Positions 14,401 to 34,762 of a stretch of 64,000 bases of DNA are shown here, piece by piece. Made by a program: the position numbers and the translations under genes. Below the pieces are notes generated by a model, which was not told where the DNA came from, ran no database searches, and was given only the letters and a program-made list of their open reading frames with translations. Location: assembly GCA_965216565.1 (NCBI GenBank), contig OZ244170.1:3584001-3648000 (forward strand), given 5' to 3'. Source of the DNA: Bythopirellula sp. (lineage in GTDB: Bacteria; Planctomycetota; Planctomycetia; Pirellulales; Lacipirellulaceae). Position 1 is the first letter of the stretch; each line of letters begins with the position of its first letter.

Positions 14401-14445
14401 GGCTTCAATTCGATTCTAAGTGGACATCACGCGAATGAACAGCAA

Positions 14446-16525: not shown

Positions 16526-16580
16526 TTTGATATTCTAAACAAACCCCACTCATACGCACAGTCTTACGGAAAGATCACCA

Positions 16581-17162: not shown

Positions 17163-17170
17163 GTCTTTGT

Positions 17171-18712: not shown

Positions 18713-18866
18713 AGCGGCACTGTTCTAGGCAGGATTCTTCGGGTAATCCCCGATTTTTCCCGACCCACTGCTACATAGCAATGCCCCGCCCTTGACTACT
18801 TTACCCAAATAGTGTACGTCTGTATATATTCTCACTATTTAGCAGTAAACCCTCCCCGCCATCATT

Positions 18867-19400
18867 ATGCCCGCAATCCCCGTGTTGACCCATGATCTGC
18901 GAACATTGCATGGGGCCAACGTGCGACGGCTCATGGCCCGACTGAATCTGACACTGCAAGACGTAGTCGAGGCCTCGGATCTCGACGAAAGGACCGTGCG
19001 CAGCATTCTGCAAGGCGTCACACGACCCCATGCCCGTACGCTCCACAAACTAGCCACAGGCCTGGGAGTTGAGGCAGACGAGCTATTTCAGGATCTATCG
19101 CACACCCATCGAGCTTCCTTCGACCGGGCTACCAATCCCGCTGTTTCGGCGGCAATCGATGCCGATCCCCAGCGGTTCGCAGACTGGACCCCCGCCGAGT
19201 TTGAAGAACTATTCAGCCGCATGGCGGTGGGAGGCGAACTGACCGAAGAGGGCGTCCTCACCTCGGCCGAGGCGATTAATTCGCGTCGTCAATTGATGAG
19301 CCAGATAGCTGTGATTCTAGAAAGCGGCGAAGCCGATCACCTGCGCGAGTTTGTCGCCATGCTCTATCATCGCGTGACAGATGTCAGCCATCTCACGTAG
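18867..19400 (+). CDS. XRE-family helix-turn-helix regulator, convergent with the capsid cluster
   Basis: NVRRLM...LTLQDVVEASDLDERTVRSILQG..RPHARTLHKLA.GLGV. Confidence 0.85.
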   Translation: MPAIPVLTHDLRTLHGANVRRLMARLNLTLQDVVEASDLDERTVRSILQGVTRPHARTLHKLATGLGVEADELFQDLSHTHRASFDRATNPAVSAAIDADPQRFADWTPAEFEELFSRMAVGGELTEEGVLTSAEAINSRRQLMSQIAVILESGEADHLREFVAMLYHRVTDVSHLT

Positions 19401-20040
19401 AAACGCGCACTACTTTGGCGATGGGTAACTTGTCGATCCGCGCTGCCTGCTCGATCGATTCCAACCGATAGATTGCGCCATCGGAACCGACGAAGCGATC
19501 GTCCGACTCCACAGGAAACTGCTCTCCCATGACAATTGTAAACCGCTCGATAGCGGTGGGAGCATTGGAGGTGTCGCTCACCGTAGTTTCATCCGGCTGA
19601 ATTCGCACTGGCATCGCAGTATAGACATCGTCCCAACTAGTGATCTCAGGCCCCTGGCCCAAGTCTTGCCAAACGGCCCGCTGTACGTCTACAGAATCGT
19701 CGCAGCCCAAGGCAACGCGCAGTTCCCGCGTTTCGCACTTCAATCGGCCTAGCAGCGAATGCTGGTCCACTGCCAACACAGTCCACTGAGAATCGTCGGC
19801 ATCGATGATGATGTCCCCCAGTTCCAACCGTGTTCCAGCATCCGGCAATTCCAAATACCACACGGCATCCGATTGAACACTCGTACCACCACTCGGCTCA
19901 GCTTCACTCGAAATCTGCTCTCGACGCAGCGAGGTAAGACCGGCCACGAGCGATCCTGACTCGCGCTTACGCAGGGACACGGTTTCCAAACCATCTACCG
20001 AAGTTACAAAATCTTGGCTAGGATCAAACTCAATGCTCAT
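19393..20040 (-). CDS. Putative head-closure/head-tail joining protein (two similar beta domains)
   Basis: Last gene of the head operon; two halves ending GDIIIDADDSQWTVLAV and DDRFVGSDGAIYRLESI. Confidence 0.5.
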   Translation of the reverse strand: MSIEFDPSQDFVTSVDGLETVSLRKRESGSLVAGLTSLRREQISSEAEPSGGTSVQSDAVWYLELPDAGTRLELGDIIIDADDSQWTVLAVDQHSLLGRLKCETRELRVALGCDDSVDVQRAVWQDLGQGPEITSWDDVYTAMPVRIQPDETTVSDTSNAPTAIERFTIVMGEQFPVESDDRFVGSDGAIYRLESIEQAARIDKLPIAKVVRVST

Positions 20041-20255
20041 CCGGTAGTTCCTTCCGACCTAATTTCAAAAGGATCGCAATCAAGCAACTTGCGATCGCAC
20101 CAATCGACGGTGCGCTGTAGCGACTCGACATAGTCAACCCAGGCAACACTTTGGCCATCAATCGAATAAGTAGGTTTGGGACTGGCTCGTAGCTCTTCGA
20201 GCTGCGTCAGCGTCTGAGCTCGAATTGTGGAAATCTGCTCGGTTTCGCTCGACAT
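20037..20255 (-). CDS. Putative head-completion adaptor (gpW-like)
   Basis: Small helical protein with a KPTYSIDGQSV.W hairpin motif, downstream of the capsid gene. Confidence 0.55.
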   Translation of the reverse strand: MSSETEQISTIRAQTLTQLEELRASPKPTYSIDGQSVAWVDYVESLQRTVDWCDRKLLDCDPFEIRSEGTTG

Positions 20256-20257
20256 GG

Positions 20258-20656
20258 TTAGATACACCTCAATTGGAAACGGAAAATGGTTTTCTGCCCT
20301 GTAACGGGCGTTAGTTCATAACGAACTTGATAGACCTTGCCGGCGTCAGGAAATGCTTCGTTCGTAGAGACATAGATTTCGTGCCGGAAGTTGTACCCAT
20401 CGCTATCTACCGTCCAGGTGTCGTCGGTTTGCAAGCTGTCGAACACCACGTCACTAACCGTCAACGAGACCGCATCGTGACCCGTGACGGCACTCAAGCC
20501 AGAGGGGTCGTTGGTCGTTAGTTCGTAGATGCTGTATTCGATTGACGAAACAGATGCCTGGTTCAAATACTGCCCCGACGCGTTGACGACCCGAGCCATG
20601 AGAACGGCAGAACCATTTCGAAACACTTTTGATTTGAAATCAGCCGCTATCGGCAT
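20258..20656 (-). CDS. Hypothetical beta-rich virion-associated protein
   Basis: 132-aa ORF tightly coupled within the head operon. Confidence 0.55.
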   Translation of the reverse strand: MPIAADFKSKVFRNGSAVLMARVVNASGQYLNQASVSSIEYSIYELTTNDPSGLSAVTGHDAVSLTVSDVVFDSLQTDDTWTVDSDGYNFRHEIYVSTNEAFPDAGKVYQVRYELTPVTGQKTIFRFQLRCI

Positions 20657-20727
20657 TTACTCGCTCCTTCCAATTGAAGTGGTCAATCACAACAGGCCCC
20701 TGGCAAAGGCAACTCGCCGCTAACACG

Positions 20728-21492
20728 TCACGCCGCAAACGCTTCGGCCCCAACATTTTCGATTCCTGAGAGATTGACCTCCGCACGCTCGGCTCCATCT
20801 GTTTGCAAGCCCTCCTGCTCGACTGTGTAGGGCCCCGAGAAACGGCAAGGCTGAATGACGGCCTGGCCTCCACGCGGCATGAGCACCCGAGGGTGTTCGG
20901 TCGCGATTGTCCCTCCGGAACTCGTCGCAACTGGTCCCCAACCGGGATGGTTCAACCGGCGTACGCAGTTGTGGTAACAGAGTAAGTTGCTTAGATCGGA
21001 GATCATTAGCGGAGAAATCCCGGCTGCCAACGCCTGGATGTCACCGTCTTGCAGAGCGATATCCAATAACGCAACTTCCGCAGCATCGACTGCGGTGCTT
21101 GTGGCAAGGTTCCCCAAGCTGAAATCATTGACGCCATCAAAGAGTCTTTCGTGATTCACTTCGGTTTGGTTCCCACCGTCCAAATAGACACGCCTGGCAG
21201 TCGCCGATTCAAAGACTCCCGTCACTTGATGCCATTGATTCGCAGACATCGGCGCAGTCGACCGTGCCGCACTGGTACTGGAAACTCTAGATATCGCAAC
21301 CACTTGATTCGCATTATGTCCCTCGTAGTTCAATCCGTGATACGATCCCGTCGTCGTGTTGCTGACACGCATCAAGGTCATCAACGTAGAACTGCTTGGA
21401 ACGCGGAACCAACCCGTCAAGGTAAACGGATAGTCCGTCACAGATAGCGAACCAAGGTCTACTAGATTGCTCGATCCTATTGCCAAAGCCAT
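20728..21492 (-). CDS. LamG/concanavalin-A-like domain protein
   Basis: PFTLTGWFR, NQWHQVTGVF, RRVYLDG, AEVAL.D.AL...I..LA motifs. Confidence 0.75.
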   Translation of the reverse strand: MALAIGSSNLVDLGSLSVTDYPFTLTGWFRVPSSSTLMTLMRVSNTTTGSYHGLNYEGHNANQVVAISRVSSTSAARSTAPMSANQWHQVTGVFESATARRVYLDGGNQTEVNHERLFDGVNDFSLGNLATSTAVDAAEVALLDIALQDGDIQALAAGISPLMISDLSNLLCYHNCVRRLNHPGWGPVATSSGGTIATEHPRVLMPRGGQAVIQPCRFSGPYTVEQEGLQTDGAERAEVNLSGIENVGAEAFAA

Positions 21493-21498
21493 CGTTGG

Positions 21499-21984
21499 TT
21501 ATGCCTCACGCAATTCTAAGGAAATGAGTTCCACGTCTCCCACCAACGTGTCAGCCACATCGGCCGCCTGGCGATTCACTAGCACCTGCAGAACATCGCC
21601 TGCGGCTAGCCCCGTGACCGCGATGGAATCGCTCACGGCAACAACGATGTCTCCGCTAGTTGCAGGGGCTGCGGTGGTTACTTGGCTGCTTCCACTCGCC
21701 GTTGGAGGAGAATCGAGGTTATCTCCAGCGGCAAAATGCACGAGTTCAACCTCGAATTTGCAGTTGCCCGTTACAGCCGAACTGGTTGTCCAAGTCAAAA
21801 GGGCTTCGATCTCACCGCCCGCAAAGTGGCTTGGGACAACCGCTTGAAATTGAGCTTGCTCTTCCGTGGAGTCATCAAAGTCCAGCACCACAAAGTCGCC
21901 TCGCATGTCGACCGTGGCAAAGTCGGCACTTGGCGGTCGATTGGACAATGCGTCGGCAGTCATCAAAGAATCACCGCTTGCCAT
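21499..21984 (-). CDS. Hypothetical jelly-roll virion/fibre-like protein
   Basis: LDFDDSTEE and AAGDVL.V.V.R.AADVADTL.GD..L motifs; AGGGAG RBS before ATG 21984. Confidence 0.55.
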   Translation of the reverse strand: MASGDSLMTADALSNRPPSADFATVDMRGDFVVLDFDDSTEEQAQFQAVVPSHFAGGEIEALLTWTTSSAVTGNCKFEVELVHFAAGDNLDSPPTASGSSQVTTAAPATSGDIVVAVSDSIAVTGLAAGDVLQVLVNRQAADVADTLVGDVELISLELREA

Positions 21985-22083
21985 TTGCTCTACACTCCCT
22001 TCGATTCGTTTGTTGGCATGGAGAAATATTTGTGAATGGCCAGCCACCAGTGCATTGCTGACTGGCCATTCACTCTGGAAGTG

Positions 22084-23244
22084 CTAGCCAGTGCACTTGA
22101 CGACATACCGAGGGTTGAGAACCGCTGGAGCCCCACGTTCGCTCGCCTTGAAGCGAAGCACGATATCATTATTGAAATCGGCTTCACTATTGATGGGTGC
22201 TTGCGTCACCGTAATTGGCCAATTCTCCATGTAGGCGAACGCCTTCGAGAAGTCGCCGATAAACCAGTACTTCTTCGCATCGGCGGCAGCAACGCCCGAG
22301 TTCACGAGCCGCCGGTAAGCAAGGCGACTTTGCTCCACTCGATAGTTGCCCAAGGGATTGGTAGCGGTCGTCGTGGTCGGCAGGCCCGATCCCACGTATG
22401 CAATCTCCGTGGCGTTGAACACGCGATGAGCGGCATGGCGATAGGCTGGCATCACCAACACGCTTGTCCCGCTAACGAGAACGGGTTCGCCGGTCGCTGG
22501 ATCGCTCATTTCGGCAAACAACTGCTCAGCAGCATCGACATTGGTCCAGTCTACTAACTCGTTCGACGCCAGCAGATTCGCCCAACTGCCAGCGGCAGAG
22601 AACGTATTGAAGTTTGCCCCGTTCTGGTTGAAAGAGTTGGTAATACCCATCACGGTATCGAGTAACCGCTTCTCTTTGTTGAGCCCCAACACCTCGCCTA
22701 CCTCAGCGGCACGCGACAAGATTAAGTTAGTCCTGTCGAAGAAAATCGCTTCTTTCGTCACCGGGACAATAAAACCATGCTTGGCAGTTGACGGCGTTTC
22801 GATGTAGTCTTCGCCGAATCCGAGATGAGGATAGGGCATTCCGTTCCCTACTTCGTCGATTCGATCCTCAATGCGATTGACTCCCGGGATCTTTTCTCCA
22901 TCGAATCGTGTCGGAATCGTTTGAACAAGTTTTGATGCAACGAAGGCTTCCTGGGAATAGGAGTCCAAGATTTTCGAATAGATCACCTGGCCTGCGATGT
23001 TTAGAAATGCGGTGACATCGATTCCGTCGGACGACTCCGTCAAGCTTACTGAACCGCTGCTCCGGGGATCGAGCATCCGCACCCAATGACGGCCTTCGGG
23101 GACGAGTGCCTCCGCCAAATCGCGGATGCTAAAATCTTCTGGTTTCAGATGCCCTTCACTGAGCGATTCGGAAAGATGCCGAACCGTGTTTCCGGCTCCG
23201 TCCAGATCGTAACGCCTCTTAAGTTCTCGATAGTTCAAAGTCAC
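22084..23244 (-). CDS. Major capsid protein (HK97-fold, Mu gpT-like)
   Basis: Position after protease and decoration genes; EVGNGMPYP, KHG.IV.VTKEAIFFDRT, LVMPA and WFIGDF motifs; AGGAG RBS before GTG 23244. Confidence 0.82.
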   Translation of the reverse strand: MTLNYRELKRRYDLDGAGNTVRHLSESLSEGHLKPEDFSIRDLAEALVPEGRHWVRMLDPRSSGSVSLTESSDGIDVTAFLNIAGQVIYSKILDSYSQEAFVASKLVQTIPTRFDGEKIPGVNRIEDRIDEVGNGMPYPHLGFGEDYIETPSTAKHGFIVPVTKEAIFFDRTNLILSRAAEVGEVLGLNKEKRLLDTVMGITNSFNQNGANFNTFSAAGSWANLLASNELVDWTNVDAAEQLFAEMSDPATGEPVLVSGTSVLVMPAYRHAAHRVFNATEIAYVGSGLPTTTTATNPLGNYRVEQSRLAYRRLVNSGVAAADAKKYWFIGDFSKAFAYMENWPITVTQAPINSEADFNNDIVLRFKASERGAPAVLNPRYVVKCTG

Positions 23245-23306
23245 AGATTCTTCTCCTGTTTTGCGGGTAGTCTGATTCTGGCTCTCTGCCTCATCACTCT
23301 TCGAAA

Positions 23307-23780
23307 TTAGGCGGCCGCCTGCGGACCTCCGCGGACCACTGTGCTGACGACATCGACAAACACACTCGTGCTGGCAGTTGGAACCCGCTTCACGCACCGT
23401 CCAATGGCGAGGTTCGCAGAAGCGACCCCTTCTACAATCTGGTCTTCCAGCTCCGTTCCCAAAGCTTCTTCGGCACCGCCGATGAAGTCGCCAATCTCAA
23501 ATGTTGACGAGCTGCACTCGAACTCAAACACGCCACTCGTGGCGACTCGAATGGAACCCGATGATTCCGCTGGTGAGGCCTGCATCGCGACGCCAAGAAA
23601 CTGGTCGTGCAATAATTCTTGATTTGCTGCCGGTGTTCCCTGGTCAGTCAGACCCGAGGCCGGCTTTGCCGTCCCACTATCGAGTACGACCAGATCGCCA
23701 ATTTCGATTCCCGCTGAACTCGAAACCGGCATGAGGATCGGATTCGTCTCTCCGTAACGCCAACGCATAGAACTTGCCAT
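23307..23780 (-). CDS. Head decoration/capsid cement protein
   Basis: IEIGDLV, FLGVAMQAS and IRVATSGVFEF motifs; between protease and capsid genes. Confidence 0.65.
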   Translation of the reverse strand: MASSMRWRYGETNPILMPVSSSAGIEIGDLVVLDSGTAKPASGLTDQGTPAANQELLHDQFLGVAMQASPAESSGSIRVATSGVFEFECSSSTFEIGDFIGGAEEALGTELEDQIVEGVASANLAIGRCVKRVPTASTSVFVDVVSTVVRGGPQAAA

Positions 23781-23829
23781 GAATTTCTTCTCCTGAATTT
23801 AGGGTGTGCAAATAGACAATCGGCTTTGT

Positions 23830-24792
23830 TTAGTTGAGGGAGCCAACACGCTGAATAGCCTTGGCAAACGCTGAAGCACCTTCCGGCTCATTGGAAGGCT
23901 GAGATTGCAGAGCAATTTGATCGACGGAGCGAGGAATCCTGGGCGAGTTTAGTTTCGAGGATGTACCAGCCGTCTCAAGAAGTTCAACCCGCTCCAACAC
24001 TAGCTGTTCGAGTTGCGAATCGTCTTCGATTGCGAGCAACATCTCATAGAAAGCCCGGCTTACCGTTTGAGGCCCCGCAGCACTCCTGTTGCCATTACCT
24101 TCCCGGTGCTTTGGTAAGCGAAGCCCATGCTCACAGAGCAACTCCAGCGTCTTCCTCTGTCGGGCGAGCCCCGCACATCGAACTTCCGACTCTTGCAACT
24201 TTTCACGCAGGCTCTCAGCACTTTGACGACTGTGCTCCTCGAGTAAATCTGGGCGACAATTCTGCAGATGCTCCAAAGTAAGCTCATTCCACTTGAGCCC
24301 TTCTTGATCGTACTCGTACAAACCCAGCGTCGCGGCAGGATCGGCGACCAAGTCGACACTTTGAACATGCGTAATCTCTTCCACCACAGTCGATTGCCCA
24401 TCTCGCGTGACACGTGCGAGTACGTTGTGAGAGACTCCCACATTCCGAGGATTGTGCTCAGCATCCCAAACCAGTTGCTCCGCCAAAGGATGTTTGGGAT
24501 TGAAATGCAAGTCTCCAAACAGCCCTTCGCTTTCGCGAAACTGAACCTCCCGAATCACGCCCAGCCGATCCTGGTAGTCGCGTGGCGATAAGGGCCCGCT
24601 CTTGGGATGATTCACGTTGACTTTTGCTCCTTCATAAAGCGATTGAGCCTTCCGCAGTGCATTTGGTTCATACACCCGGCCATTGCGCGAGGTGAGTCCG
24701 ATAAGCTTCACTCCCTTGAGCACGCCGCGTTTCGAGTCGACACGAAGCGTTGTTCCTTGCGAGTCGACAAATTCTTGTAGAGCTTCGGCCAT
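23830..24792 (-). CDS. Prohead protease/scaffold fusion
   Basis: GVKLIG..SRNGR.Y, VNVNHP, VGVSH and VQSVDLVADPA motifs; coiled-coil C-terminus. Confidence 0.75.
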   Translation of the reverse strand: MAEALQEFVDSQGTTLRVDSKRGVLKGVKLIGLTSRNGRVYEPNALRKAQSLYEGAKVNVNHPKSGPLSPRDYQDRLGVIREVQFRESEGLFGDLHFNPKHPLAEQLVWDAEHNPRNVGVSHNVLARVTRDGQSTVVEEITHVQSVDLVADPAATLGLYEYDQEGLKWNELTLEHLQNCRPDLLEEHSRQSAESLREKLQESEVRCAGLARQRKTLELLCEHGLRLPKHREGNGNRSAAGPQTVSRAFYEMLLAIEDDSQLEQLVLERVELLETAGTSSKLNSPRIPRSVDQIALQSQPSNEPEGASAFAKAIQRVGSLN

Positions 24793-24824
24793 TGTCTGTC
24801 AGTCCTCATTCATCCTTAGTGAAT

Positions 24825-24870
24825 AAAAAAAGCCTCGGACAAAAACCTCAAGGGTTCTCGTCCGAGGCTC
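24825..24870 (-). terminator. Intrinsic terminator/attenuator upstream of the protease-capsid genes
   Basis: AGCCTCGGACGAGAACC-CTTGA-GGTTTTTGTCCGAGGCT followed by a T run. Confidence 0.85.
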
Positions 24871-24943
24871 GATGGGATACGCCTGCCGCTCAATCAGCAC
24901 ACGCTCTTTTCGATACCTGTTTGCCTGGGGTCGCTTACGCCGC

Positions 24944-25123
24944 TTACTTCACCATCCGATCTACGTTGACCCGTGTGTACTGAATGTGTCCGTCTTGTAC
25001 GTTCACCGTCACACTTGCGGTACCAAAGAAGCCACGACCACTGACGCTTTCGATGAGCCTGTCAAATTCCTGACGGGCTTGGGTGCTTCGATCAGTCGAA
25101 TTCAAAGAGTTTTGTTTGCTCAT
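24944..25123 (-). CDS. Small YezD/DUF2292-like protein
   Basis: 59 aa, helix followed by GFFGTASVTVNVQDGHIQ..RV. Confidence 0.55.
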   Translation of the reverse strand: MSKQNSLNSTDRSTQARQEFDRLIESVSGRGFFGTASVTVNVQDGHIQYTRVNVDRMVK

Positions 25124-25168
25124 GATGGGTCTCACTTTAGCAAAATGCGAAGGTCATTTCAGCAACTA

Positions 25169-26572: not shown

Positions 26573-26652
26573 CGTTCTTGCTCCCGATTTGTTTAACGTG
26601 TTGAAATGGATTCATGGATACTAGTTGACTGTTGTGTCATCCTCGATACGAA

Positions 26653-28269
26653 CTATCCGACTGCCAATCGGTCGCCCAGACCATCGTCGGGAATGTTCTG
26701 GTTCACACTACCAATCAGCCGCACTGCCATCTCGAGGGCGTCCGGACCATCGTCGTGAGCGCCCAGCGGAAAGTCGCGCAGTTGGTCTACAAGTAGCGTG
26801 GTTGAGACGGAGCCTTGCACAAAACGCAAACGCCGCTGCGAAAGCAATGCCTCCAATCGGCGTATTCGAGATTGCTTATTCAGAGTATTGTGAATCGAAC
26901 AGACTTGTAGCGAGCGGAGCCCGCGTGTGTTGCACTCCCGACGAAACTCGTCGGCTAGCAGTTCTTGAAACTGATTGGCTTCTACGCCAAAGGTATTAAC
27001 CCGATGCCGCTCGCAGAGCGTCAACCCATCGGCGACCATCTGCGAGATATGCCGTTTCGCCAAATCGGCTTCGACGTACATGACTCCGCGATCGTCCATG
27101 CCTAGGACAACAAAAGCAGAGTAGTCGCCCTGTCGAGACTGCACGCCTTTGCTGGGATCCAAAGCAATTACTTTCCGCGGCAACTGTTCCGGCCACGCTT
27201 GGAACCACACGTGCTCGCCAAAGTACTCATCCGGCCATTCGCAACGTTCGGGATCGATCGGTGAACTTTGCTTTTCTCTCTCAAATGCACTGCGGCCTTC
27301 TTCCACACACATTTTCATCAGCGTGTATAGATCCTCTTCCTCAGGCCATAAGAGTTCCGCACCTTCATCCATTGCCTTTCTGTTCTTGACATAGAAAAAC
27401 CAAGCATCGCGGCGGGCAGAGTGGTTGCTGAGATCGCAATATATCGTTTCCCATCGCTTCCACAGTGCGTCGTTCGTGGGCCATTTGAGAATTGCCTTGA
27501 ACTTCTTCGAACGCCACCCTGGATTGCGATCGAACTGCATCGCCAGCGCATCGCGGTGGAGGGCTGTTGCTAGGTTGAGAACGTTCGTGTGCTTGGTCCC
27601 CGCCTTGAGTAGGGTTCCATGAAACCAGCGCGTCGAGCTTTCTCGGAGCGTGGCCGATGCCATGTGGTCATCGTTTTGCAAATCATCGCAGACGATCAGC
27701 GAGGGGCGAGACTCTCTGATTCGTCTGCCTCGCAATCGCTGCCCAGTTCCAAAACCTTCGATCACAACTCCATTTGGAAGAATCATAGAACCACGTCGCC
27801 AGCGGGCCCCGCGTCCTGTTGCCTGCGGAAAGTCGCGCGCCAGGAGCGGATTGCCCTCTAGCTCGGCTTTGATGTTCTCCAGATGAGTTTGTGCCTGGTC
27901 CTTGGTATCGGAGACTAGCCAGATGTAAGGCTCCCACGCATCTAGTGCCGCCCGGAGGATGTAGCACAGACTTCCAATGGTCGACTTGGCCCCGCCTCGC
28001 GGGCCGATGACATTGATTTTCGTGCCGCGCTGGTTGTGCATATCGTCCAGCTGCTGTCCTAGCCAGCAGTGCATAACCGAAGGCTGCCGGTGGAAGTGCC
28101 GCGGCAAGTAGCGACGGCCCCACGATAGTGTGTCGAGCTGACTACTACGTTGCTTGCACCGGATACGTCGGCCAATGCCCTGGAACAACGCACGCGACAA
28201 TCGGCTGACGTGGCTATCTACCTGGCACGAGTCGGAGTTGGGGTCGATTCGCCGCCTGTGGTCACTCAT
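26653..28269 (-). CDS. Terminase large subunit
   Basis: Walker A GPRGGAKST, Walker B LIVCDDLQ, nuclease ALDPS..GDYSA, VEANQFQ and HDDGPDAL motifs; ATG overlaps the small-subunit stop. Confidence 0.92.
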   Translation of the reverse strand: MSDHRRRIDPNSDSCQVDSHVSRLSRALFQGIGRRIRCKQRSSQLDTLSWGRRYLPRHFHRQPSVMHCWLGQQLDDMHNQRGTKINVIGPRGGAKSTIGSLCYILRAALDAWEPYIWLVSDTKDQAQTHLENIKAELEGNPLLARDFPQATGRGARWRRGSMILPNGVVIEGFGTGQRLRGRRIRESRPSLIVCDDLQNDDHMASATLRESSTRWFHGTLLKAGTKHTNVLNLATALHRDALAMQFDRNPGWRSKKFKAILKWPTNDALWKRWETIYCDLSNHSARRDAWFFYVKNRKAMDEGAELLWPEEEDLYTLMKMCVEEGRSAFEREKQSSPIDPERCEWPDEYFGEHVWFQAWPEQLPRKVIALDPSKGVQSRQGDYSAFVVLGMDDRGVMYVEADLAKRHISQMVADGLTLCERHRVNTFGVEANQFQELLADEFRRECNTRGLRSLQVCSIHNTLNKQSRIRRLEALLSQRRLRFVQGSVSTTLLVDQLRDFPLGAHDDGPDALEMAVRLIGSVNQNIPDDGLGDRLAVG

Positions 28270-28732
28270 CTTGCGGTTCCTCATGAGTCTCGTCGGGTTC
28301 TGCTTCCGCCATCTGGGCCATTTCAGCAAGTTTCATTAGTACGCGATCACGATCTTCCTCGCAGTTGACGCTAGTGAAAATCACTTCGATCAGCTCTTTC
28401 AAATATTCCTGCAGATCCTTGGTGGTCACAGGCTTGCTAGAATTCCGGTTTCGACGCCGTTTTGCTTTTTGCTCCAACCACCAGGTGGCTGCGCGCCAAT
28501 GCTTTTCATCCTCGGCCGCCTTGTGAACCGCCTTCATACGATGAAGTTCCGCCATCCCTTCGCTGCGTAATAACTCTTGGGCGAACTCTGAGTCGTCCTC
28601 CATCTGTTTTTGAAGTTGAACGATGGTCGCACGCATAGCCTGTGCGGCGGACGCCCGTTCGCAACCCATCTGCACCATGTGACAGATCGCGTGTTTTTGT
28701 TCTGTGGAAAGAGGGGGCGTTGATTCGGGCAT
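28262..28732 (-). CDS. Putative terminase small subunit
   Basis: N-terminal HTH-like segment and WRAATWWLE motif; directly upstream of TerL. Confidence 0.65.
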   Translation of the reverse strand: MPESTPPLSTEQKHAICHMVQMGCERASAAQAMRATIVQLQKQMEDDSEFAQELLRSEGMAELHRMKAVHKAAEDEKHWRAATWWLEQKAKRRRNRNSSKPVTTKDLQEYLKELIEVIFTSVNCEEDRDRVLMKLAEMAQMAEAEPDETHEEPQDE

Positions 28733-28790
28733 ACACGAGGCGATTGGGGCGAGTCAATCCGTTAAGGCTTGTTCATTTGATTCGTTGCGG

Positions 28791-29942
28791 CTAGTCCCCG
28801 ACATATTCAAACGACACCACAGCCCGGCCGGCGGAACTTCGATAGTTGGCAAACCGTTGCGCATTGGACCGGCCCGAGCCAGTTTTCTTTACGCTAACCG
28901 CTTTCCATTGTGTAGAACGTTTGCAATGGCGAATGAGCGATGGGTGACTGCTGGTGACGTTGATCCGCAATCCCTCTGCGCGATGCAGCGACGCCACGGC
29001 AGCCACCACCCGCATGCCGATGCCCATGCCTTGAAAATCTGGCAGCGTCACTATTCGCGTGAATCGCCTGTGACCTTTCTTCGCAATCACAGGAAGCGTG
29101 GCACAAAACGCCACTGGCTCGCCCTCCCAGGTGGCCAGGTAGCTGCGCGCTCCGATGGCAAGAGAACCGCTCAGATAGTGATGCTTCGCAAACAGTTTCC
29201 AAGCAGCCAATTTCGAGCGGTGGATTTCCAATTGAATTGGGGGTCGCCGAAGACGCCTCCGGTGCAGTTGACGCGTGGCCATATCCAAGACCCAATCCGC
29301 CTCCAGCCACTCCGCCACGTCGTAGTGGCAGGTGACCGCTACGAAGCGGCGCGGGATATTCCTCTTGCGAACTGCCTTGGAGATGGCCGTCGAGCAGGCC
29401 TTGGCCACATTGCGATCAACCACACTCGTGAACTCATCGAAAACGACTAGGGGTCTAGAGTCTAGAGACGAGAGCCCAGAGCCACTCTGTCCGCGAGTCT
29501 CTTCTGGCTCTCGACTCTCGTCTCTAGACTCTCGACTACCCAATAACGCCTTGGCCAGATTGCAACGAAACTGTTCGCCACAACTTAGCACCTGGTAAGG
29601 TTTGATCCAGGAAGGCGGCGAACTGAATCCCACTGCAGTGAACAACTCGACAACTTGCTTCACTGGCAAATCCTCGAAGCAGTCGAGCACGGATCGTTCT
29701 GCTGGCCAGCTCTCGGTGCTATAGAGTTCTTCTCCGTACAGCTCATTGGCAATGGTACTTTTTCCGCTTCCCGAGGGGCCCACGATCAGACCGATGTCCC
29801 ACGATTCCTGACGACTGGGTGTCTCCACCGAGAACTTCTCGGAAACCCTCTCCTCTAGCGGCACATCGAACATGCCTGCCACCTGCTGCACTCGAAACGA
29901 ATCATAGATCGGGCAACTCACTACAACGTCAACACTCGACAT
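28791..29942 (-). CDS. ABC-type ATPase fused to a GNAT acetyltransferase (Mom-like)
   Basis: GPSGSGKST, LSCGEQFR, FDEFTSVVDR, CHYD, FAKHHYL and RIVTLPDFQGMGIG motifs. Confidence 0.85.
   Translation of the reverse strand: MSSVDVVVSCPIYDSFRVQQVAGMFDVPLEERVSEKFSVETPSRQESWDIGLIVGPSGSGKSTIANELYGEELYSTESWPAERSVLDCFEDLPVKQVVELFTAVGFSSPPSWIKPYQVLSCGEQFRCNLAKALLGSRESRDESREPEETRGQSGSGLSSLDSRPLVVFDEFTSVVDRNVAKACSTAISKAVRKRNIPRRFVAVTCHYDVAEWLEADWVLDMATRQLHRRRLRRPPIQLEIHRSKLAAWKLFAKHHYLSGSLAIGARSYLATWEGEPVAFCATLPVIAKKGHRRFTRIVTLPDFQGMGIGMRVVAAVASLHRAEGLRINVTSSHPSLIRHCKRSTQWKAVSVKKTGSGRSNAQRFANYRSSAGRAVVSFEYVGD
29451..29541. repeat. Palindromic heptamer-repeat element inserted in frame in the ABC-GNAT gene
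   Basis: TAGAGTC-TAGAGAC-GAGAGCC-CAGAGCC ... CTGGCTC-TCGACTC-TCGTCTC-TAGACTC-TCGACTA. Confidence 0.75.
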
Positions 29943-30478
29943 CGACGCCCCTCCTCTCGCATACGCTCGTAGATTTCGCGCTGTTCCTCTTCGTTGTCGC
30001 ACTGCACAACGACTTGAAATAACTCGGGAATTTGCAATTCTGCTTCGGCCAGCGAATCTTCTCCGCCATTGGCATGTGCTCCCGTCTGCAATTGATCCAG
30101 CATTTCGGCGACATGCGGACTATCGAAATCGCATAGCCCCAGCAAGTCGTCTACCTGGCCCATGTTTGTTTCAGCCAACGCCGCCAGGGGATCGTGCGTT
30201 AACAGAATCTTCAGGGCTTCCTCTTCGTTCACGTCGAGCACCAACACCGGCACCTTGGCATCAGGTGTGGTTTCGGCGCGGAGATGCCCATCAATTAATT
30301 CCAATCGGCCGTCCTCCAATTCTCTGGCCAGCAGTGCATCGGCATAGCCAATCTCCGCAAGCACGCCGCATAAGGCATCGCGTTGTGCGGGAGGATGGCT
30401 ACGCCAATTCCTGGGATTAGGCACCAAGTCGCTGGCCCGAACGCGACGCAGCTCTTTTATGCGATCCTGTATTTGCAT
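29921..30478 (-). CDS. ParB N-terminal domain protein (terminase-linked)
   Basis: LVPNPRNWRSHP, IGYADALL and LIDGHLR motifs. Confidence 0.85.
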   Translation of the reverse strand: MQIQDRIKELRRVRASDLVPNPRNWRSHPPAQRDALCGVLAEIGYADALLARELEDGRLELIDGHLRAETTPDAKVPVLVLDVNEEEALKILLTHDPLAALAETNMGQVDDLLGLCDFDSPHVAEMLDQLQTGAHANGGEDSLAEAELQIPELFQVVVQCDNEEEQREIYERMREEGRRCRVLTL

Positions 30479-30505
30479 CTAATGACTTTCTCTGCAATCA
30501 GTCGC

Positions 30506-30805
30506 TTAATGCTGTTTAAGCAACTGCCTGACCAAGTCGCGGACCTCTTTGATTTCGCTGCGCAGTTCCGTCCGCATGCGTTGGTTGCCTATCTCGATGG
30601 CTGCCAATCGGGCTTGAACTTCGCCGATTTCCCGAGTGGAAACGTAGTCTCTCGCATTCCTGGTAGCGAAGTCTTCCTCGGGTTCCGACGGCGACGCCAC
30701 CGTGGTGGCCACGGCACCCAGAATTGCCGTAATCAATGTCGCCGCCGCAGGCCAACTTAGCTCTCTGCGATGGGGCTTCGTTTGCGATGGTTCAGTTTGG
30801 TCCAT
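30506..30805 (-). CDS. Small single-TM coiled-coil protein (holin/spanin-like?)
   Basis: WPAAATLITAILGAVATTVA hydrophobic segment followed by a heptad-rich tail. Confidence 0.55.
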   Translation of the reverse strand: MDQTEPSQTKPHRRELSWPAAATLITAILGAVATTVASPSEPEEDFATRNARDYVSTREIGEVQARLAAIEIGNQRMRTELRSEIKEVRDLVRQLLKQH

Positions 30806-30820
30806 ACACCTGGGCCCTTC

Positions 30821-31501
30821 CTATTGAACTTTTCCACCTGCGGTTTCGGAACGTAAGTTAGGCGAGTCACCTGGCCCCAGTGGCTCTTCGCTTGGCCGTA
30901 CACCAGCCGCCATATCGGTACGATTCGCATCGCCAGCAAACGCATTGAGGTATTCCAAAACTTGCACGTAGTTGCCGTACATTCGCATCGAATCGTTGAC
31001 GTAAATAAACGTGCCGCGAAATCGACTTTCCAGGCGCGTCCAATTGCAGATAGCTCGATCAATCGCGCCTAGCAGAATCAGCGCGTTCTGACTGCGGAAG
31101 TTGAGTTGACTGCTGACGGGGATATTGGGATCGCTACCGTCTACCGCCCAGGGCAACGCAATCAAGCCACCAGGAGCGTCCTGAACGTCGTCGCCGCCAA
31201 AGGGCTCGGTCGAACCCAATAGAGTTTGGTTCGAGTCGATCGCACGCTCGATAAGTTCTCCCAGCGGAGTTTTCTCCGGATTGTAGGTCACCCGGCGACG
31301 CATCCGATCGCAGGCTAATAAATGTGAGATGTAGTGCGACTTGGTGGTATTATCGAGACCGCCCCGCACACCGAACTCATCGTTTGAAACCACTTCGCTG
31401 CGAAAATCGAACAGGGGTCCCAACGCGGCCACGATATGTAAGTTGCGAAATTCAGAGATTGCCCGACGAAATTGTTCTTGTCCTGGGTCACCAGCTGGCA
31501 T
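30821..31501 (-). CDS. Hypothetical protein of the capsid cluster
   Basis: 226-aa ORF with AAGGAG RBS. Confidence 0.7.
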   Translation of the reverse strand: MPAGDPGQEQFRRAISEFRNLHIVAALGPLFDFRSEVVSNDEFGVRGGLDNTTKSHYISHLLACDRMRRRVTYNPEKTPLGELIERAIDSNQTLLGSTEPFGGDDVQDAPGGLIALPWAVDGSDPNIPVSSQLNFRSQNALILLGAIDRAICNWTRLESRFRGTFIYVNDSMRMYGNYVQVLEYLNAFAGDANRTDMAAGVRPSEEPLGPGDSPNLRSETAGGKVQ

Positions 31502-31503
31502 GG

Positions 31504-31857
31504 TTAGTTCTCCTTTGTCTGAACTTGAAGTTTGGTGGGAGCAATTTCATTGAACCGCTCTCGTAAATCTCTTCTCAACGCGTCAGCCCAACTTCGCTCG
31601 TCCTGCGACGAACGGTCACTGTCGGCAATCGCATCGAGTCGATCGAGTGCAAGCCTTCCTGCAACCGCATCTTGTAACGGGTCACGTCCCTCATGTCGCG
31701 AAAGTTGTAGAAGTTGTCGAGCCTCATGGTCGTCTCGCTGGATGGGTTGAAATATGGCCGCCGATTCGTCGGCGACCTCCTCTTCTTCCTTAGATGCTGC
31801 GGTTGATTGCTGCGTACTATTCCCCGAGAAAGGGACGCCGACGACCTCGGGCGTCGT
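31504..31857 (-). CDS. Start-less helical ORF, possibly a frameshift extension of the protease
   Basis: 117 sense codons (...QRDDHEARQLLQLSRHEGRDPLQDAVAGRLALDRLD...KEN*); it fills the gap and stops 2 nt before the next ATG; no ATG or GTG, and the only TTG is near the 3' end. Confidence 0.6.
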   Translation of the reverse strand, partial: TTPEVVGVPFSGNSTQQSTAASKEEEEVADESAAIFQPIQRDDHEARQLLQLSRHEGRDPLQDAVAGRLALDRLDAIADSDRSSQDERSWADALRRDLRERFNEIAPTKLQVQTKEN

Positions 31858-32908
31858 TCAATCGGTTCTTCATTCCGCGTCCCACTAGCCAACCAGCCAC
31901 CGTCCCAACGGCCAGCACTGCCCAGCCTGCGGGACCGCTGAGCCCGAGAGTCGTGGCGATCTTACTGCCAACGTGTTTCCCAACACCGACGCTTCTTGAG
32001 GCAACCAGGCTCCTCACTTTTTCTAGAATCGAATCTTGCTGGGAATCAAGTTGTTGCCGGGTCGCATAGTCGCCACTCGGTTGCTTTTTCCGCTCGAGCC
32101 TCTCAACGTCGGCCGCCAATCGATCAAGGCGCGCGTCTCGCACAATTGAAGATTCTTCGCGCTCGGCGATCCGTGGCTGTTGGGGATGCTGTGGAATCGG
32201 CGTGAGAGGCTGCGCGGGTTCGGGCATGGCAGGGCGAGGACAGAGTCCGTTAGGGCAGTTCACCACAACCTGCTGTTTGCGACCGAGAACTCTACCTACA
32301 AAGCTTCGCAAGGGACGCCCGCAGCTGGCATACGTTACCCCATCTCGCTGGCCCCAAACCACCGCAACGAGCTGGCCGCGGTCATTGAACACCCCGCCCC
32401 CAGAGTCGCCCGTTCGCACTGCACTTCCCAACAACACACTCGTCTGCCCTTGCTGATTCGAAGTACCCACGGCCAGGCCCGAAACACATCGATACTGACC
32501 CGACTGGCCATACCCACAGGCGGTCAAGTTTGATTTCTGATTTAGTTCAAACGCCACAGGCGCTGGTTGCACAGGTGGATTGGCGATCACGAGCGCTGCC
32601 AGGTCAGCAGATTCATCAAGCGCGACTAACCGTGCCCCGTACGTACGGCCACTGGCAAACTGCACTACAATCTTCCCCGTACCTTCGCGAAACAGGTGCC
32701 AGCAACTGAGCACCAGCCCCGCACGCTGGTCGTTCGAGCAATCGATCAACGTACCGCTGCCGACGTTCGAGAAACCTGATAGCTGGTTGAGGACGCGACA
32801 CGACGCCTCCGCAGGTACGCTTGCCTCTGACCTTGTTGCACATAGCGATATCAAAGCCCCGAGCGCGAATGCAATGGTAAGCTTCTTAGAAATCGGTAGG
32901 TTTCGCAT
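31817..32908 (-). CDS. Secreted trypsin-like serine protease with C-terminal membrane segment
   Basis: Signal peptide; GSGTLI, LSCWHL, DLAAL and GDSGGGV catalytic triad motifs; C-terminal GPAGWAVLAVG.VAGWLV. Confidence 0.88.
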   Translation of the reverse strand: MRNLPISKKLTIAFALGALISLCATRSEASVPAEASCRVLNQLSGFSNVGSGTLIDCSNDQRAGLVLSCWHLFREGTGKIVVQFASGRTYGARLVALDESADLAALVIANPPVQPAPVAFELNQKSNLTACGYGQSGQYRCVSGLAVGTSNQQGQTSVLLGSAVRTGDSGGGVFNDRGQLVAVVWGQRDGVTYASCGRPLRSFVGRVLGRKQQVVVNCPNGLCPRPAMPEPAQPLTPIPQHPQQPRIAEREESSIVRDARLDRLAADVERLERKKQPSGDYATRQQLDSQQDSILEKVRSLVASRSVGVGKHVGSKIATTLGLSGPAGWAVLAVGTVAGWLVGRGMKNRLNDARGRRRPFLGE

Positions 32909-32909
32909 C

Positions 32910-33500
32910 TTAGACCCCCGCCAATGTAAAGCGATATCGATAGAACGGACTACGGGCCAGATCGGCGGGTTCTGTCACCCGGTCGGCCAAGTGCGGCACC
33001 GGATCGATGCCTCCCCCTACACGATCAGCCAGAGCGCAGGCTTCTGAGCAAAACGGCGGTCGGCTGGTAATCTTTAGATCATCCATATCTGGACGCACCC
33101 ACAATCGCCACATCGGCATGTGCCGCAACGCGGCGAGGAGCACGCCGAAATATCCGTAGTCGCAGCCAGCCAACCGCCGAATGTACCTCACAGCACCCGG
33201 TTGGTCGTAACCTCGCCAACGATCGCCGGGATTGGTTTCGAACACGTCAATCGATCCGGGCAGTCGTGCCACCTGGCTTTCCAGTGTCACGGCACGGCCT
33301 CCCTGCAGTTCGCGCACTTCGCAGCAAAACAAGGTATCGCCCCACCAAACCGCTCGCGCCGCATGGGTGTATTCGCTACGACCCGCGATGCGAATCAAGC
33401 GTGCCAAGAATCCGCGACCTCGAAAGAGCAATAGATCGCCGTCGCAGATGCGATCTTCCGCGTGCCGAAGCAACAACAAGGATCGAAAGTTGGTTTCCAA
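32910..33500 (-). CDS. Permuted papain-like (YiiX/YaeF, NlpC/P60) protein
   Basis: DGDLLLFRG, YTHAA, G.DY, FCSE and VTEPADL motifs; GGAGGGG RBS before TTG 33500. Confidence 0.75.
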   Translation of the reverse strand: METNFRSLLLLRHAEDRICDGDLLLFRGRGFLARLIRIAGRSEYTHAARAVWWGDTLFCCEVRELQGGRAVTLESQVARLPGSIDVFETNPGDRWRGYDQPGAVRYIRRLAGCDYGYFGVLLAALRHMPMWRLWVRPDMDDLKITSRPPFCSEACALADRVGGGIDPVPHLADRVTEPADLARSPFYRYRFTLAGV

Positions 33501-33527
33501 GAGTGTTTCGCCCCTCCGAGTGCGCAC

Positions 33528-33570
33528 AAAAAAAGCCCGGCGAGAACACAATGGTCCTCAGCCGGGCTCT
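33528..33570 (-). terminator. Intrinsic terminator/attenuator in the leader of the cluster's first gene
   Basis: AGCCCGGC-TGAGGACCATTGTGTTCTC-GCCGGGCT followed by a T run. Confidence 0.8.
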
Positions 33571-33910
33571 TCGGATACCTGCATTAGGCTCTGGTAGATA
33601 CCTCAACGACAAGAGCTAACTTATCGCAAAGCGTGGCCCAAGTTCAAAGAGAAAGTGAGAAGATTTCGAACGCGCCTTGGCATGACTCGATAGCAACGAC
33701 GGTCCTTGGCTTCGGAATAACATCAACACTAAGATGTTCTTAGTGAGCCTTCCCCTAGATGCGTCGGCCGATGAAACCCTGTGCAGGTTAGTAAGAGTGG
33801 ATATGCTCCAGCTTTGGATGTAACTACAATGTACATCCGCTACATAGAAACGTGTCCGCCACTACTTTCAATGCCATGATAAAACTTGTCCTCTCTTACA
33901 GGCCATCCCT

Positions 33911-34603: not shown

Positions 34604-34762
34604 AAATCCCAGCATTCACCTCGTCAAAATCTTGATTACCGAGAATTGTGCTTATTTACCAGGTATTTTTGCCATCACTTACGTAGTGCGACCAGCAAAT
34701 CGGCTTTTGGATGAGCTACACCGGCGTGAAACGCCTGGGCAGGAGAAATCAACAGAAACTAC

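Follow-up and report, generated by a model that had tools for sequence, protein, structure and literature searches.

What kind of element is a set of intact phage-type head and packaging genes that stands in a planctomycete chromosome among ordinary host genes? The window, a stretch of 64,000 nucleotides from Bythopirellula sp. (contig OZ244170.1, positions 3,584,001 to 3,648,000), holds 19 such genes between 19393 and 33551 on the minus strand, all co-oriented and intact. An earlier note on this DNA had described a co-oriented, phage-like gene order, which was reproduced here by ORF listing with Pfam and PHROG scans. The genes encode YiiX-like, trypsin-like, ParB-like and ABC-GNAT proteins, TerS, TerL, portal, protease/scaffold, decoration, capsid, LamG and head-completion proteins, along with several unassigned ones. 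We found no description of such a cluster in the literature searched. Its features are as follows.

18867..19400, plus strand: CI/Cro-type HTH regulator, convergent with the cluster (HTH_31/HTH_3 and phrog_3 repressor matches)
19393..20040, minus strand: head-completion (closure or tail-attachment) protein, 215 aa, assigned via matches of its homologues
20037..20255, minus strand: conserved 72-aa ORF immediately ahead of the head-completion gene, resembling an adaptor in position alone
20258..20656, minus strand: FN3/Ig-like beta-sandwich protein, 132 aa (AF2 pLDDT 86)
20728..21492, minus strand: LamG/concanavalin-like protein (Laminin_G_3, 2.4e-11; phrog_8510 virion structural protein)
21499..22047, minus strand: accessory 182-aa protein, lost jointly with the LamG gene
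22084..23247, minus strand: major capsid protein (Phage_capsid_4, 3.3e-15)
23307..23780, minus strand: head decoration/cement protein (Phage_cement_2, 2.5e-5; phrog_122)
23830..24792, minus strand: probable prohead protease with a scaffold-like C-terminal half (weak matches: phrog_207 head maturation protease, 2.3e-4, and phrog_29592)
24830..24870, minus strand: intrinsic-terminator-like hairpin (18-bp stem and T run) dividing the cluster into two units
24944..25123, minus strand: 59-aa ORF that follows the portal gene and is conserved with a three-base period (alignment A8)
25169..26572, minus strand: portal protein, lambda family (PF05136, 2.6e-23; phrog_21, 1e-43)
26653..28329, minus strand: TerL (phrog_38, 1.3e-77; Terminase_6C)
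28262..28732, minus strand: TerS (phrog_4102, 3e-5)
28791..30002, minus strand: ABC-type ATPase fused to GNAT acetyltransferase (phrog_11143, 2.4e-99)
29921..30478, minus strand: ParB-like nuclease-domain protein (phrog_620, 4e-9)
30506..30805, minus strand: 99-aa protein whose sequence shows a single hydrophobic helix and a coiled-coil tail
30821..31501, minus strand: 226-aa protein, the most conserved cluster gene (84–87% identity in the genus; dN/dS 0.02)
31504..31755, minus strand: small conserved ORF (about 80 aa) whose frame differs from that of the longest ORF, 105 aa
31817..32908, minus strand: trypsin-like serine protease (Trypsin_2, 1.7e-16; N-terminal signal-like and C-terminal hydrophobic segments)
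32910..33551, minus strand: YiiX-like (permuted papain fold) protein, the first cluster gene (weak matches)

On balance, we lean towards reading the cluster as the head-and-packaging half of an ancient siphovirus, now a fixed, host-inherited element of Pirellulales whose tail module was deleted in this lineage. Its gene set is best read as that of a domesticated system producing tail-less heads filled with DNA, apparently a viral remnant that the host has turned to its own use.

TerL had been said to keep its ATPase and nuclease motifs, and its Walker A, Walker B and nuclease Asp residues are indeed invariant in all 10 aligned orthologues. It is the sole Terminase_6C match in the genome, and the phages closest to it are Mu-like Pseudomonas siphophages, sharing about 33% identity across 93% of the protein. 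The portal gene has a dN/dS of about 0.05. The capsid protein, 68–81% identical within the genus, found no counterpart by tblastn among 50,697 phage records; its ORF reaches 23397, and homology begins near residue 50. In the protease/scaffold protein, which has no PDB sequence match, His62 and Ser121 are invariant in 16 sequences. The 59-aa ORF has no Pfam match. The hairpin is kept with compensatory changes in seven of seven genus genomes, so we expect two transcription units, and its site is a hot spot of insertion and inversion in relatives.

At the head-closing end, Pfam and PHROG scans of the 215-aa protein itself found no match. Among 15 relatives, three match Phage_HCP (best 8.6e-7) and two match Phage_attach, and homologues also match phrog_161 and phrog_501, head closure Hc1. 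The 72-aa ORF, called an adaptor in the earlier note, has no family match in Pfam or PDB sequence searches; of 80 GTDB loci, 71 retain it in conserved form, as do all 20 loci of other families. The model of the 132-aa protein resembles FN3 domains (VIA Z up to 7.1) and has weak Foldseek matches to phage neck chains (E 0.02). The LamG gene is accessory (missing in L013, L016, L020 and L022), and its 182-aa neighbour has no family match in Pfam or PHROG. The convergent HTH gene (dN/dS 0.04–0.12) is missing, as is the cluster, from the empty site of G019 and also borders tailed versions of the cluster in other families; the regulator is therefore part of the element, a point that had been missed.

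Upstream of TerS, the ABC-GNAT protein has homologues in 61 phage records (34–41% identity), where they adjoin ParB-like genes. The earlier note described a host-type repeat inserted in frame. A palindromic insert of about 85 nt is present in frame in this gene, at 29456-29539, but it is not an abundant host repeat, since only one partial copy, of 30 nt, occurs elsewhere in the genome. The three ORFs reported as unknown are also present, although the longest-ORF rule had assigned one of them to an incorrect frame; its true coordinates are 31504..31755. This small ORF has no ATG, GTG or TTG start in the present genome, and we count the missing canonical start against our preferred reading. The family of the 226-aa protein has 603 members and no Pfam domain; among the 120 matches listed, the named ones are all hypothetical and planctomycete. 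Its AF2 model was unusable (pLDDT 50). The 99-aa protein, with no family match in Pfam or PHROG, may have a lysis or membrane role. The trypsin-like gene also stands before ParB in tailed versions. The YiiX-like protein had no match in its own Pfam scan, two of 13 relatives match Peptidase_C92 (best E 0.0082), and its best PDB profile match is a cysteine peptidase (E 0.02). The protease, YiiX-like and lysis assignments depend on weak matches, which we likewise count against the preferred reading.

The window contains no integrase, att-like repeat, replication gene, tail gene or tRNA. The genome has eight Phage_integrase matches, the closest 238 kb from the cluster, and none of the 20 largest of 46 repeat families includes a direct repeat pair of att type, in line with the claim that integrase, att repeat and tRNA are lacking. 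Composition had been judged host-like, and GC (0.547 in the cluster, 0.536 in the genome) and GC3 (0.586 against 0.594 ± 0.021) agree with this; the RSCU correlation with host genes, 0.891, falls just short of the 5th percentile (0.900) for random sets of host genes.

A comparison of synteny, which the earlier note had proposed, places the cluster in the same chromosomal slot, MoCF-EEP-[cluster]-HTH-FMO, throughout the genus. The same five upstream genes occur in a genome of another family, and FMO lies downstream of the element in two further families. The cluster occurs in 21 of 24 genomes of the genus (TerL in 20, the capsid gene in one more), and TerL in 11 of 16 other families. Of 301 sampled genomes of the order, 182 have the capsid gene, rarely with more than one match, and within the same family it was found in 31 of 33 genomes; the element is near-universal and single-copy in several families. 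Only six of 201 genomes sampled from the phylum were positive. Within the genus the cluster has been lost outright at least twice (in G019 with G003, and in G017), which had not been noticed before, makes the cluster dispensable and counts against the reading that we prefer. It is split by an inversion in G005 and by 4–8 kb insertions in G008, G010 and G012.

The cluster is vertically inherited and under purifying selection, as the suggested tree and dN/dS comparisons showed. All supported clades are common to the cluster tree and the host tree, the latter built from one marker. Distances correlate with those of the host marker for TerL (0.80) and portal (0.78), values reached by none of 2000 Mantel permutations each. 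In the closest pair, dS is 0.38–0.68 for cluster genes and 0.48 and 0.73 for two host genes, which puts cluster and host genes at the same level. Most cluster genes have a dN/dS of 0.02–0.18, with TerS at 0.12–0.36. Within the genus, the portal correlation is weak, at 0.25, and 47 of 2000 permutations attained that value; this and the single-marker host tree we count against the preferred reading.

These patterns bear on whether the cluster is simply a defective prophage remnant, or a still-mobile satellite, without host function. Its phage origin, its classification as viral by IMG/VR pipelines and its absence from three of 24 genus genomes speak for this. However, its genes are all intact in more than 20 species with dS saturated and dN/dS well under 1, its slot is fixed across families with no integrase or att site, and its near-universal, single-copy presence and congruence with host trees are hard to reconcile with this explanation, which we disfavour as highly improbable.

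The lack of tail genes extends to the whole 5.2-Mb genome, in which sequence-based searches found no tail and no second portal, capsid or terminase. PF04860 portal, PF05065 capsid, PF10145 tape measure and PF04984 sheath were without match, and 349 (100 + 249) tail-region ORFs of relatives used as probes gave no true match. A single apparent probe match was antisense of a kinase gene and was rejected. A complete particle system with tail genes elsewhere in the genome, too diverged to recognise, is very unlikely. Searches by sequence could overlook such genes, PF06841 was without match in any genome, control included, and clusters can split, as the inversion and insertions in relatives show; RcGTA has accessory loci apart from its main cluster. 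Against this, tail proteins of same-order relatives are 30–60% identical to one another and should have been detectable with the probes, and the position of the tail module in relatives corresponds in the present genome to the junction of the head-completion and HTH genes.

Of 80 GTDB loci, 15 have tail homologues after the head-completion gene, as do 11 of 20 loci of other families, and in five of these 11 the same convergent HTH gene borders the tail module, which lies exactly where the present genome has the two genes abutting. Among the matches in the module are tail completion gp17, a terminator-like protein and phrog_22694, together with a weak one to a major tail protein. In G032, head and tail together occupy the chromosomal slot that the cluster has here. 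Tails have been lost or reduced in at least four families with heads kept. The tail-less state is thus derived, having arisen by secondary loss of the tail from an older element that other families keep in this slot, a point that the earlier note had missed.

We infer expression, particle formation, packaged DNA, release and host benefit from these genes. The CI-type regulator would hold the element silent until a signal, after which the two units parted by the terminator would be expressed. Portal, protease/scaffold, capsid and decoration proteins would build procapsids, and TerS and TerL would load them with DNA, probably by headful packaging, as the nearest TerL relatives are Mu-like headful packagers. 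The DNA would be mostly host chromosome, because the element has no excision or replication genes. The 72-aa and head-completion proteins may plug the portal, and the YiiX-like, trypsin-like and small membrane proteins may aid release. The product would be tail-less, DNA-filled heads unable to inject DNA on their own; the host could use them through completion by tails of related infecting phages or in some tail-independent role.

A stricter version of such use is a gene transfer agent (GTA), with heads carrying random host DNA to kin by way of tails supplied in trans by related phages, as in capsid-forming satellites, or by a tail-free uptake route. The role is an unproven hypothesis, and we regard it as possible but rather doubtful. 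Genomic hallmarks of GTAs are present (no replication or integration genes, vertical inheritance, purifying selection), and the head-completion and 72-aa proteins, the tail-docking end, are kept in most tail-less lineages (dN/dS 0.07–0.16). Tailed relatives with homologous connector proteins are known both as phages and as chromosomal versions, and published work on cf-PICIs offers a precedent for tail-less capsids that are released and then bind foreign tails. The present genome, however, has neither tail genes nor a helper prophage, and the head-completion gene is gone in G005, G008 and G012, with partial matches only in two more genus genomes. All five keep their remaining cluster genes under selection, which argues against tail docking as the selected function everywhere, and perhaps also against stable DNA retention; this weighs on the preferred reading as well. 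To our knowledge, moreover, every GTA is tailed.

The head module appears valuable without its own tail, because tails were lost repeatedly, in four families, while heads were kept. This also suits an anti-phage decoy, in which, when a related siphophage infects, the resident terminase and heads would trap phage or host DNA in dead-end, tail-less heads and might in addition soak up phage tails; in both cases the burst would be cut, and the selected function would be defence rather than gene transfer. TerS, which encodes the subunit that recognises DNA, is by far the fastest-evolving cluster gene (34–45% identity in the genus versus 60–87% for other core genes), consistent with a conflict-driven function, although TerS proteins of phages are generally fast-evolving. 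Related phages are present in viral contig collections, and a CI-type regulator could sense infection. No PADLOC model fits the cluster, however, no known defence genes lie within it in the present genome, and the idea is purely inferential; we consider it unlikely.

Among the known systems close to this element is its own tailed form in other families of Pirellulales (for example L172, L193, L265, L268, L278 and the G032 locus). Both have orthologues of ParB, ABC-GNAT, TerS, TerL, portal, protease, decoration, capsid, 72-aa and head-completion genes, the convergent HTH regulator and, where flanks are visible, the same neighbouring host genes; only the tailed versions have a 6–12 kb tail module between the head-completion and HTH genes, which is deleted here. 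The cf-PICIs similarly have TerS, TerL, portal, protease, capsid and head-tail connector genes of their own with no tail, and they make and release tail-less, DNA-filled capsids able to bind phage tails later. They are mobile, with integrase, excision and replication genes and identical copies across species, whereas the present element has none of those mobility genes, keeps one chromosomal slot and co-diverges with its host. The phages nearest by TerL, the transposable Mu-like Pseudomonas siphophages H70, DMS3, MP38 and JBD30, differ in that the present capsid protein has no detectable match in any phage record, no transposase was found, and the element occupies a fixed position rather than random insertion sites. 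GTAs of the RcGTA type, from Rhodobacter capsulatus and other Alphaproteobacteria, are chromosomal, phage-derived structural clusters of about 15 kb. They share with the present cluster the lack of integrase and replication genes, long vertical inheritance, purifying selection and occasional loss. RcGTA has a full siphovirus-like tail, in contrast to the present cluster, which has no tail genes, comes from another phylum and uses unrelated protein families (lambda-type portal, Phage_capsid_4 capsid, Mu-like TerL); random-DNA packaging and transfer are hypothetical here. Tailocins (R- and F-type pyocins and their relatives) are likewise half a phage, domesticated, chromosomal and maintained by selection. 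They are the mirror image of the present cluster: tailocins kept the tail and lost the head and packaging genes, whereas here the head was kept.

The cluster consisted of 19 ORFs in the same orientation and without internal stops, running on the minus strand from 33551 to 19393, in a source genome made up of one contig of 5.21 Mb, of which the window spans positions 3,584,001–3,648,000. Gene order and labels were assigned from Pfam and PHROG scans. We note that the labels YiiX-like, protease, adaptor, and lysis are weak or positional assignments. The features, in gene order and with the adjoining regulator last, were as follows.

First gene, minus strand: YiiX-like protein (weak evidence)
Second gene, minus strand: trypsin-like protease
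31504–31755, minus strand: conserved small ORF, after the trypsin-like gene
30821–31501, minus strand: 226-aa protein of unknown function, between the small ORF and the 99-aa gene
Minus strand: 99-aa protein with a single hydrophobic helix
Minus strand, after the 99-aa gene: ParB-like protein
Minus strand: ABC-ATPase/GNAT fusion (phrog_11143, 2.4e-99)
Minus strand, directly before TerL: TerS
Minus strand: TerL (phrog_38, 1.3e-77)
Minus strand: portal, lambda-family
Minus strand, after the portal gene: conserved 59-aa ORF
Minus strand: probable protease/scaffold (weak evidence)
Minus strand, before the capsid gene: cement/decoration protein
Minus strand: capsid protein (Phage_capsid_4)
Minus strand, after the capsid gene: 182-aa protein of unknown function, then LamG protein
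20258–20656, minus strand: 132-aa beta-sandwich protein, after LamG
20037–20255, minus strand: 72-aa ORF, before the 215-aa gene
19393–20040, minus strand: 215-aa protein, last gene; homologues match head completion (3 of 15) and head-tail attachment (2 of 15) families
18867–19400, plus strand: CI/Cro-type HTH gene, convergent on the last cluster gene

Three descriptive claims of an earlier note, made from the sequence by eye, held in these analyses. The scans recovered its gene order. TerL, said to keep both ATPase and nuclease motifs, retained Walker A, Walker B, and the nuclease aspartates, which were invariant in ten of ten orthologues. Composition was host-like, though codon usage was slightly atypical. 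The CI-type HTH gene adjoining the cluster is conserved, and ordinary planctomycete genes lie on both sides: FMO, EF-P, and radical SAM on one, and EEP (endonuclease/exonuclease/phosphatase), MoCF, HEAT, and CoA-binding on the other. Genes adjoining the element include an HpiC1-like cyclase, two radical SAM genes, a flavin monooxygenase, and EF-P (window 13330–18712), and in Botrimarina-type loci radical SAM genes and EF-P directly abut the cluster. Between the cluster and EEP, a 1.2-kb low-GC stretch (~0.50) holds a 230-aa ORF without a family match (33911–34603, plus strand); the stretch looks like an insertion private to this genome, since the same gap is only ~180 bp in the relative's locus L017. 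Elsewhere in the window, a class II ribonucleotide reductase gene (55590–58664) is immediately followed, on its downstream side, by an HNH endonuclease gene (54558–55247, minus strand).

Genes for mobility and for a tail were missing from the cluster, and tail genes, as far as searched, from the rest of the genome as well. In agreement with the earlier reading that there is no integrase, att repeat, tRNA, or replication gene, the nearest integrase match lay 238 kb from the cluster, none of the 20 largest repeat families (of 46) was an att-like direct repeat at the boundaries, the window held no tRNA, and the Pfam and PHROG scans contained no replication gene. The cluster TerL was the sole Terminase_6C match genome-wide, and PF04860 (portal), PF05065 (capsid), PF10145 (tape measure), and PF04984 (sheath) had no match in the whole genome; the PF06841 tail-tube search was uninformative, as its control matched in no genome. 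The search for tail genes elsewhere in the genome, which the earlier note had proposed, was sequence-based and found none, either with Pfam families or with 349 probe ORFs from tailed relatives: these ORFs (100 + 249), taken from downstream of the head-completion gene, gave no true tblastn match. One apparent tail-protein match, at genome position 3,119,019–3,119,636, came from the antisense strand of a Ser/Thr kinase gene. Profile searches for terminase, portal, capsid, integrase, tape measure, and sheath detected no helper prophage in the genome, although an external phage might act as helper. PADLOC-DB 2.0 defence-system models did not fit, with only weak, generic matches (trypsin, ABC, HTH).

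The cluster was widespread in the order and fixed in position. TerL orthologues occurred in 20 of 24 same-genus genomes and in 11 of 16 other families of the order, mostly as a single full-length copy, and a capsid search found the cluster in one of the four TerL-negative genus genomes, for 21/24. In the 20-kb loci examined, the cluster was collinear throughout and occupied the same slot among host genes, MoCF–EEP–cluster–HTH–FMO. In one genus genome (G019) the slot is empty and 96 bp separate EEP from FMO, which shows the HTH gene to be part of the element. This genome groups with G003 in a single clade that falls within the cluster carriers, and G017 is rearranged immediately after EEP; together these indicate at least two losses within the genus. 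Where synteny breaks in G017, which lacks the cluster, there is a duplicated 3' EEP fragment (L257:4251–4421) that looks like a rearrangement scar. Across broader samples of each group, in which some genomes were incomplete, the capsid gene was present in 182 of the 301 genomes sampled at order level. It was near-universal in several families (31/33 in its own family; 30/32, 17/18, 11/12, and 12/13 in others) and had no match in further ones (0/33), and a phylum-level sample of 201 genomes contained it in only 6. Among cultured strains, the cluster is present in records titled Bythopirellula polymerisocia, Botrimarina colliarenosi, and Aeoliella straminimaris.

Divergence of the cluster followed that of its hosts. 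A TerL and portal tree (21 genomes) agreed in every supported clade with one built from RNase G, the host marker (35 genomes). Pairwise distances correlated with those of the host marker (Spearman 0.80 for TerL, 0.78 for portal; neither reached in 2000 Mantel permutations), with a weak portal correlation within the genus (0.25, reached by 47 of 2000 permutations). The vertical inheritance proposed earlier is therefore supported by the fixed slot, tree congruence, and distance correlation, with a single marker, RNase G, standing for the host and a weak within-genus portal signal. Values of dN/dS were 0.02–0.18 in the closest pairs, and up to 0.36 for TerS, in keeping with the suggested purifying selection. 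In the closest pair, cluster dS was 0.38–0.68, matching host RNase G (0.48) and FMO (0.73). Near-identical copies across species, a sign of horizontal spread, were not seen; orthologues diverge in step with the host. Absence or degradation in close relatives, a concern of the earlier note, applied in part: the cluster is intact in more than 20 species, but has been lost outright at least twice in the genus. A decaying cryptic prophage is ruled out by these intact ORFs, the low dN/dS, and the presence in 31 of 33 family genomes.

Conservation differed among parts of the cluster. The 59-aa ORF and the protease gene are separated by a strong hairpin that resembles a terminator, T run included (24870–24830), and was kept with compensatory changes in seven of seven genus genomes. 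The gap between the portal and protease genes carried 4–8 kb insertions of ordinary genes in G008, G010, and G012 and an inversion in G005, which, together with the conserved hairpin, makes the cluster at least two units. These insertions leave both cluster halves intact; in one genus clade, bPH_2, beta-lactamase family, and kinase/pyrophosphorylase genes were inserted (L023:4538–8897, L024:10930–19032, L025:3184–8919). Genes after the capsid gene were the least stable of the cluster: the 182-aa and LamG genes were missing from four genus loci, and the 215-aa gene was missing in G005, G008, and G012 and gave only partial matches in G009 and G021. TerS was the least conserved gene (34–45% identity), and the most conserved was that of the 226-aa protein (84–87% identity, dN/dS 0.02), whose family lacks annotation and has only planctomycetes among the named members listed. 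This protein had no usable ESM Atlas match and an AF2 model with pLDDT 50. PDB profile searches with the 226-aa, 215-aa, 132-aa, and protease sequences gave nothing below E 0.6 or no match, and the 72-aa ORF had no PDB or Pfam match. The 132-aa fold is a generic FN3-like sandwich, and its Foldseek matches to chains of phage necks (E 0.02) are too weak to make it an adaptor.

The ParB-like and ABC-like genes are a recurrent, uncharacterised phage gene pair. In four genus relatives, an extra gene encoding 560–577 aa lies between the 99-aa gene and ParB; of three scanned (L013:3617–5350, L016:14546–16225, L022:3660–5345), two had SASA carbohydrate esterase and SWM repeats, one of them also LamG, and the third had DUF2341 only. 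The SASA/LamG product may be a particle protein that binds surface glycans. The linker of the ABC-GNAT fusion contains a palindromic insert of ~85 nt with 28-nt arms (29456–29539). The earlier description of a host-type repeat inserted in frame was correct as to the in-frame insert, but the rest of the genome has only a single partial copy, of 30 nt. An Rfam scan of 18000–35000 returned only two microRNA-like chance matches, both on this insert. The small ORF (31504–31755) has no ATG, GTG, or TTG start here, with ATA where two relatives have ATG, and nucleotide conservation in the first ~130 nt of its block was unusually high in a comparison of 13 genomes, which could reflect an RNA or DNA signal overlapping the ORF. 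The high dN/dS of a "105-aa ORF" was an artefact of a wrong frame. A sigma-70 promoter scan found fewer sites than in shuffled sequence and was uninformative.

Comparison with relatives indicates that the tail was lost. Distant IMG/VR relatives (capsid identity near 50%) were ordinary siphophage-like contigs, in which the 215-aa homologue is followed by genes for head closure, neck, and tape measure. One IMG/VR contig with a capsid 71% identical (L072:3466–11997) had different co-oriented genes after the capsid, including a phrog_290 "minor tail protein", and lacked both the 132-aa and the 215-aa homologue. Species-representative genomes contained 350 capsid relatives, and the best 80 of these were sorted by what follows the capsid gene: 45 loci were tail-less, being bounded by the HTH gene or by host genes no more than 4.5 kb from it, 15 had tail homologues, three were bounded at a greater distance, 12 were on too-short contigs, and five were ambiguous. 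The tail-less set takes in every locus titled Bythopirellula, Lacipirellula, or Botrimarina on a contig long enough to judge; the three Aeoliella loci were ambiguous. In a genome from another family (G032), the five host genes upstream are the same, and the head genes are followed by a ~6.3-kb tail module and the convergent HTH gene. Tail modules were present in 11 of 20 further loci (nine families), five of them visibly HTH-bounded and one followed by FMO. Five of the 20, in three families, had no tail gene or at most one, and four were ambiguous; two of the 20 were the same records as two query sources. No integrase was found within 12-kb flanks of two tailed chromosomal versions. Just upstream of one tailed version, in another Pirellulales genome, there is an MreB/Mbl-like fragment match (2.8e-27, ~100 residues; L246:704–1900, minus strand).

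The tail-less state is derived, the tail having been lost secondarily. On the simplest reading of these sequences, a single ancient insertion would have been fixed before these Pirellulales families split, with integration and replication genes already gone by then, as judged at least from the two tailed versions that were inspected. Independent loss or reduction of the tail would have followed in four or more families, with selection continuing to act on the head module.

More broadly, we tentatively suggest, at somewhat less than even odds, that the cluster is an order-wide domesticated siphovirus, held at one locus since before the Pirellulales families split, which repeatedly discarded its tail and kept a working DNA-packaging head under strong selection for a tail-independent function, a "head-only viriform" and counterpart of the tailocin. 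If so, candidate functions would be capture of incoming phage DNA or tails, as a defence, or export of capsid-protected host DNA, and the tail-retaining versions would give Planctomycetota its first candidate gene transfer agent. Full-text literature searches returned no paper describing this cluster, and the literature searched contained no described class in which a head-and-packaging module alone is selected over a family-level time span after tail loss. Should particles form, questions would follow about the use of a DNA-filled head without a tail, planctomycete gene exchange through such heads, and a role in defence; we know of no well-studied routes of gene exchange in planctomycetes. 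The system is directly testable, with natural comparisons at hand in tailed, tail-less, and head-completion-less forms and in empty-slot genomes. Virus-prediction pipelines call these loci viral, so prophage counts for the order are inflated.

The cluster shares features with two known systems. It resembles capsid-forming PICIs in gene content, with its own capsid and packaging genes and no tail genes, but departs from their mobility: it has no integrase (nearest 238 kb), att sites, or replication module, and it lacks near-identical copies across species, diverging instead with the host. Like a gene transfer agent, it is a chromosomal phage-like structural cluster without integration or replication genes, vertically inherited with the host and under purifying selection. 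Unlike one, it has no homologue of a tail, the delivery apparatus, in window or genome by sequence search. The cluster thus agrees with a gene transfer agent, for which the earlier note made it a candidate, in all genomic features except delivery. The known domesticated parts of phages are either whole particles (gene transfer agents) or tails alone (tailocins, injection systems), and the element, as known here from its genes, would be a head-only form of domesticated phage.
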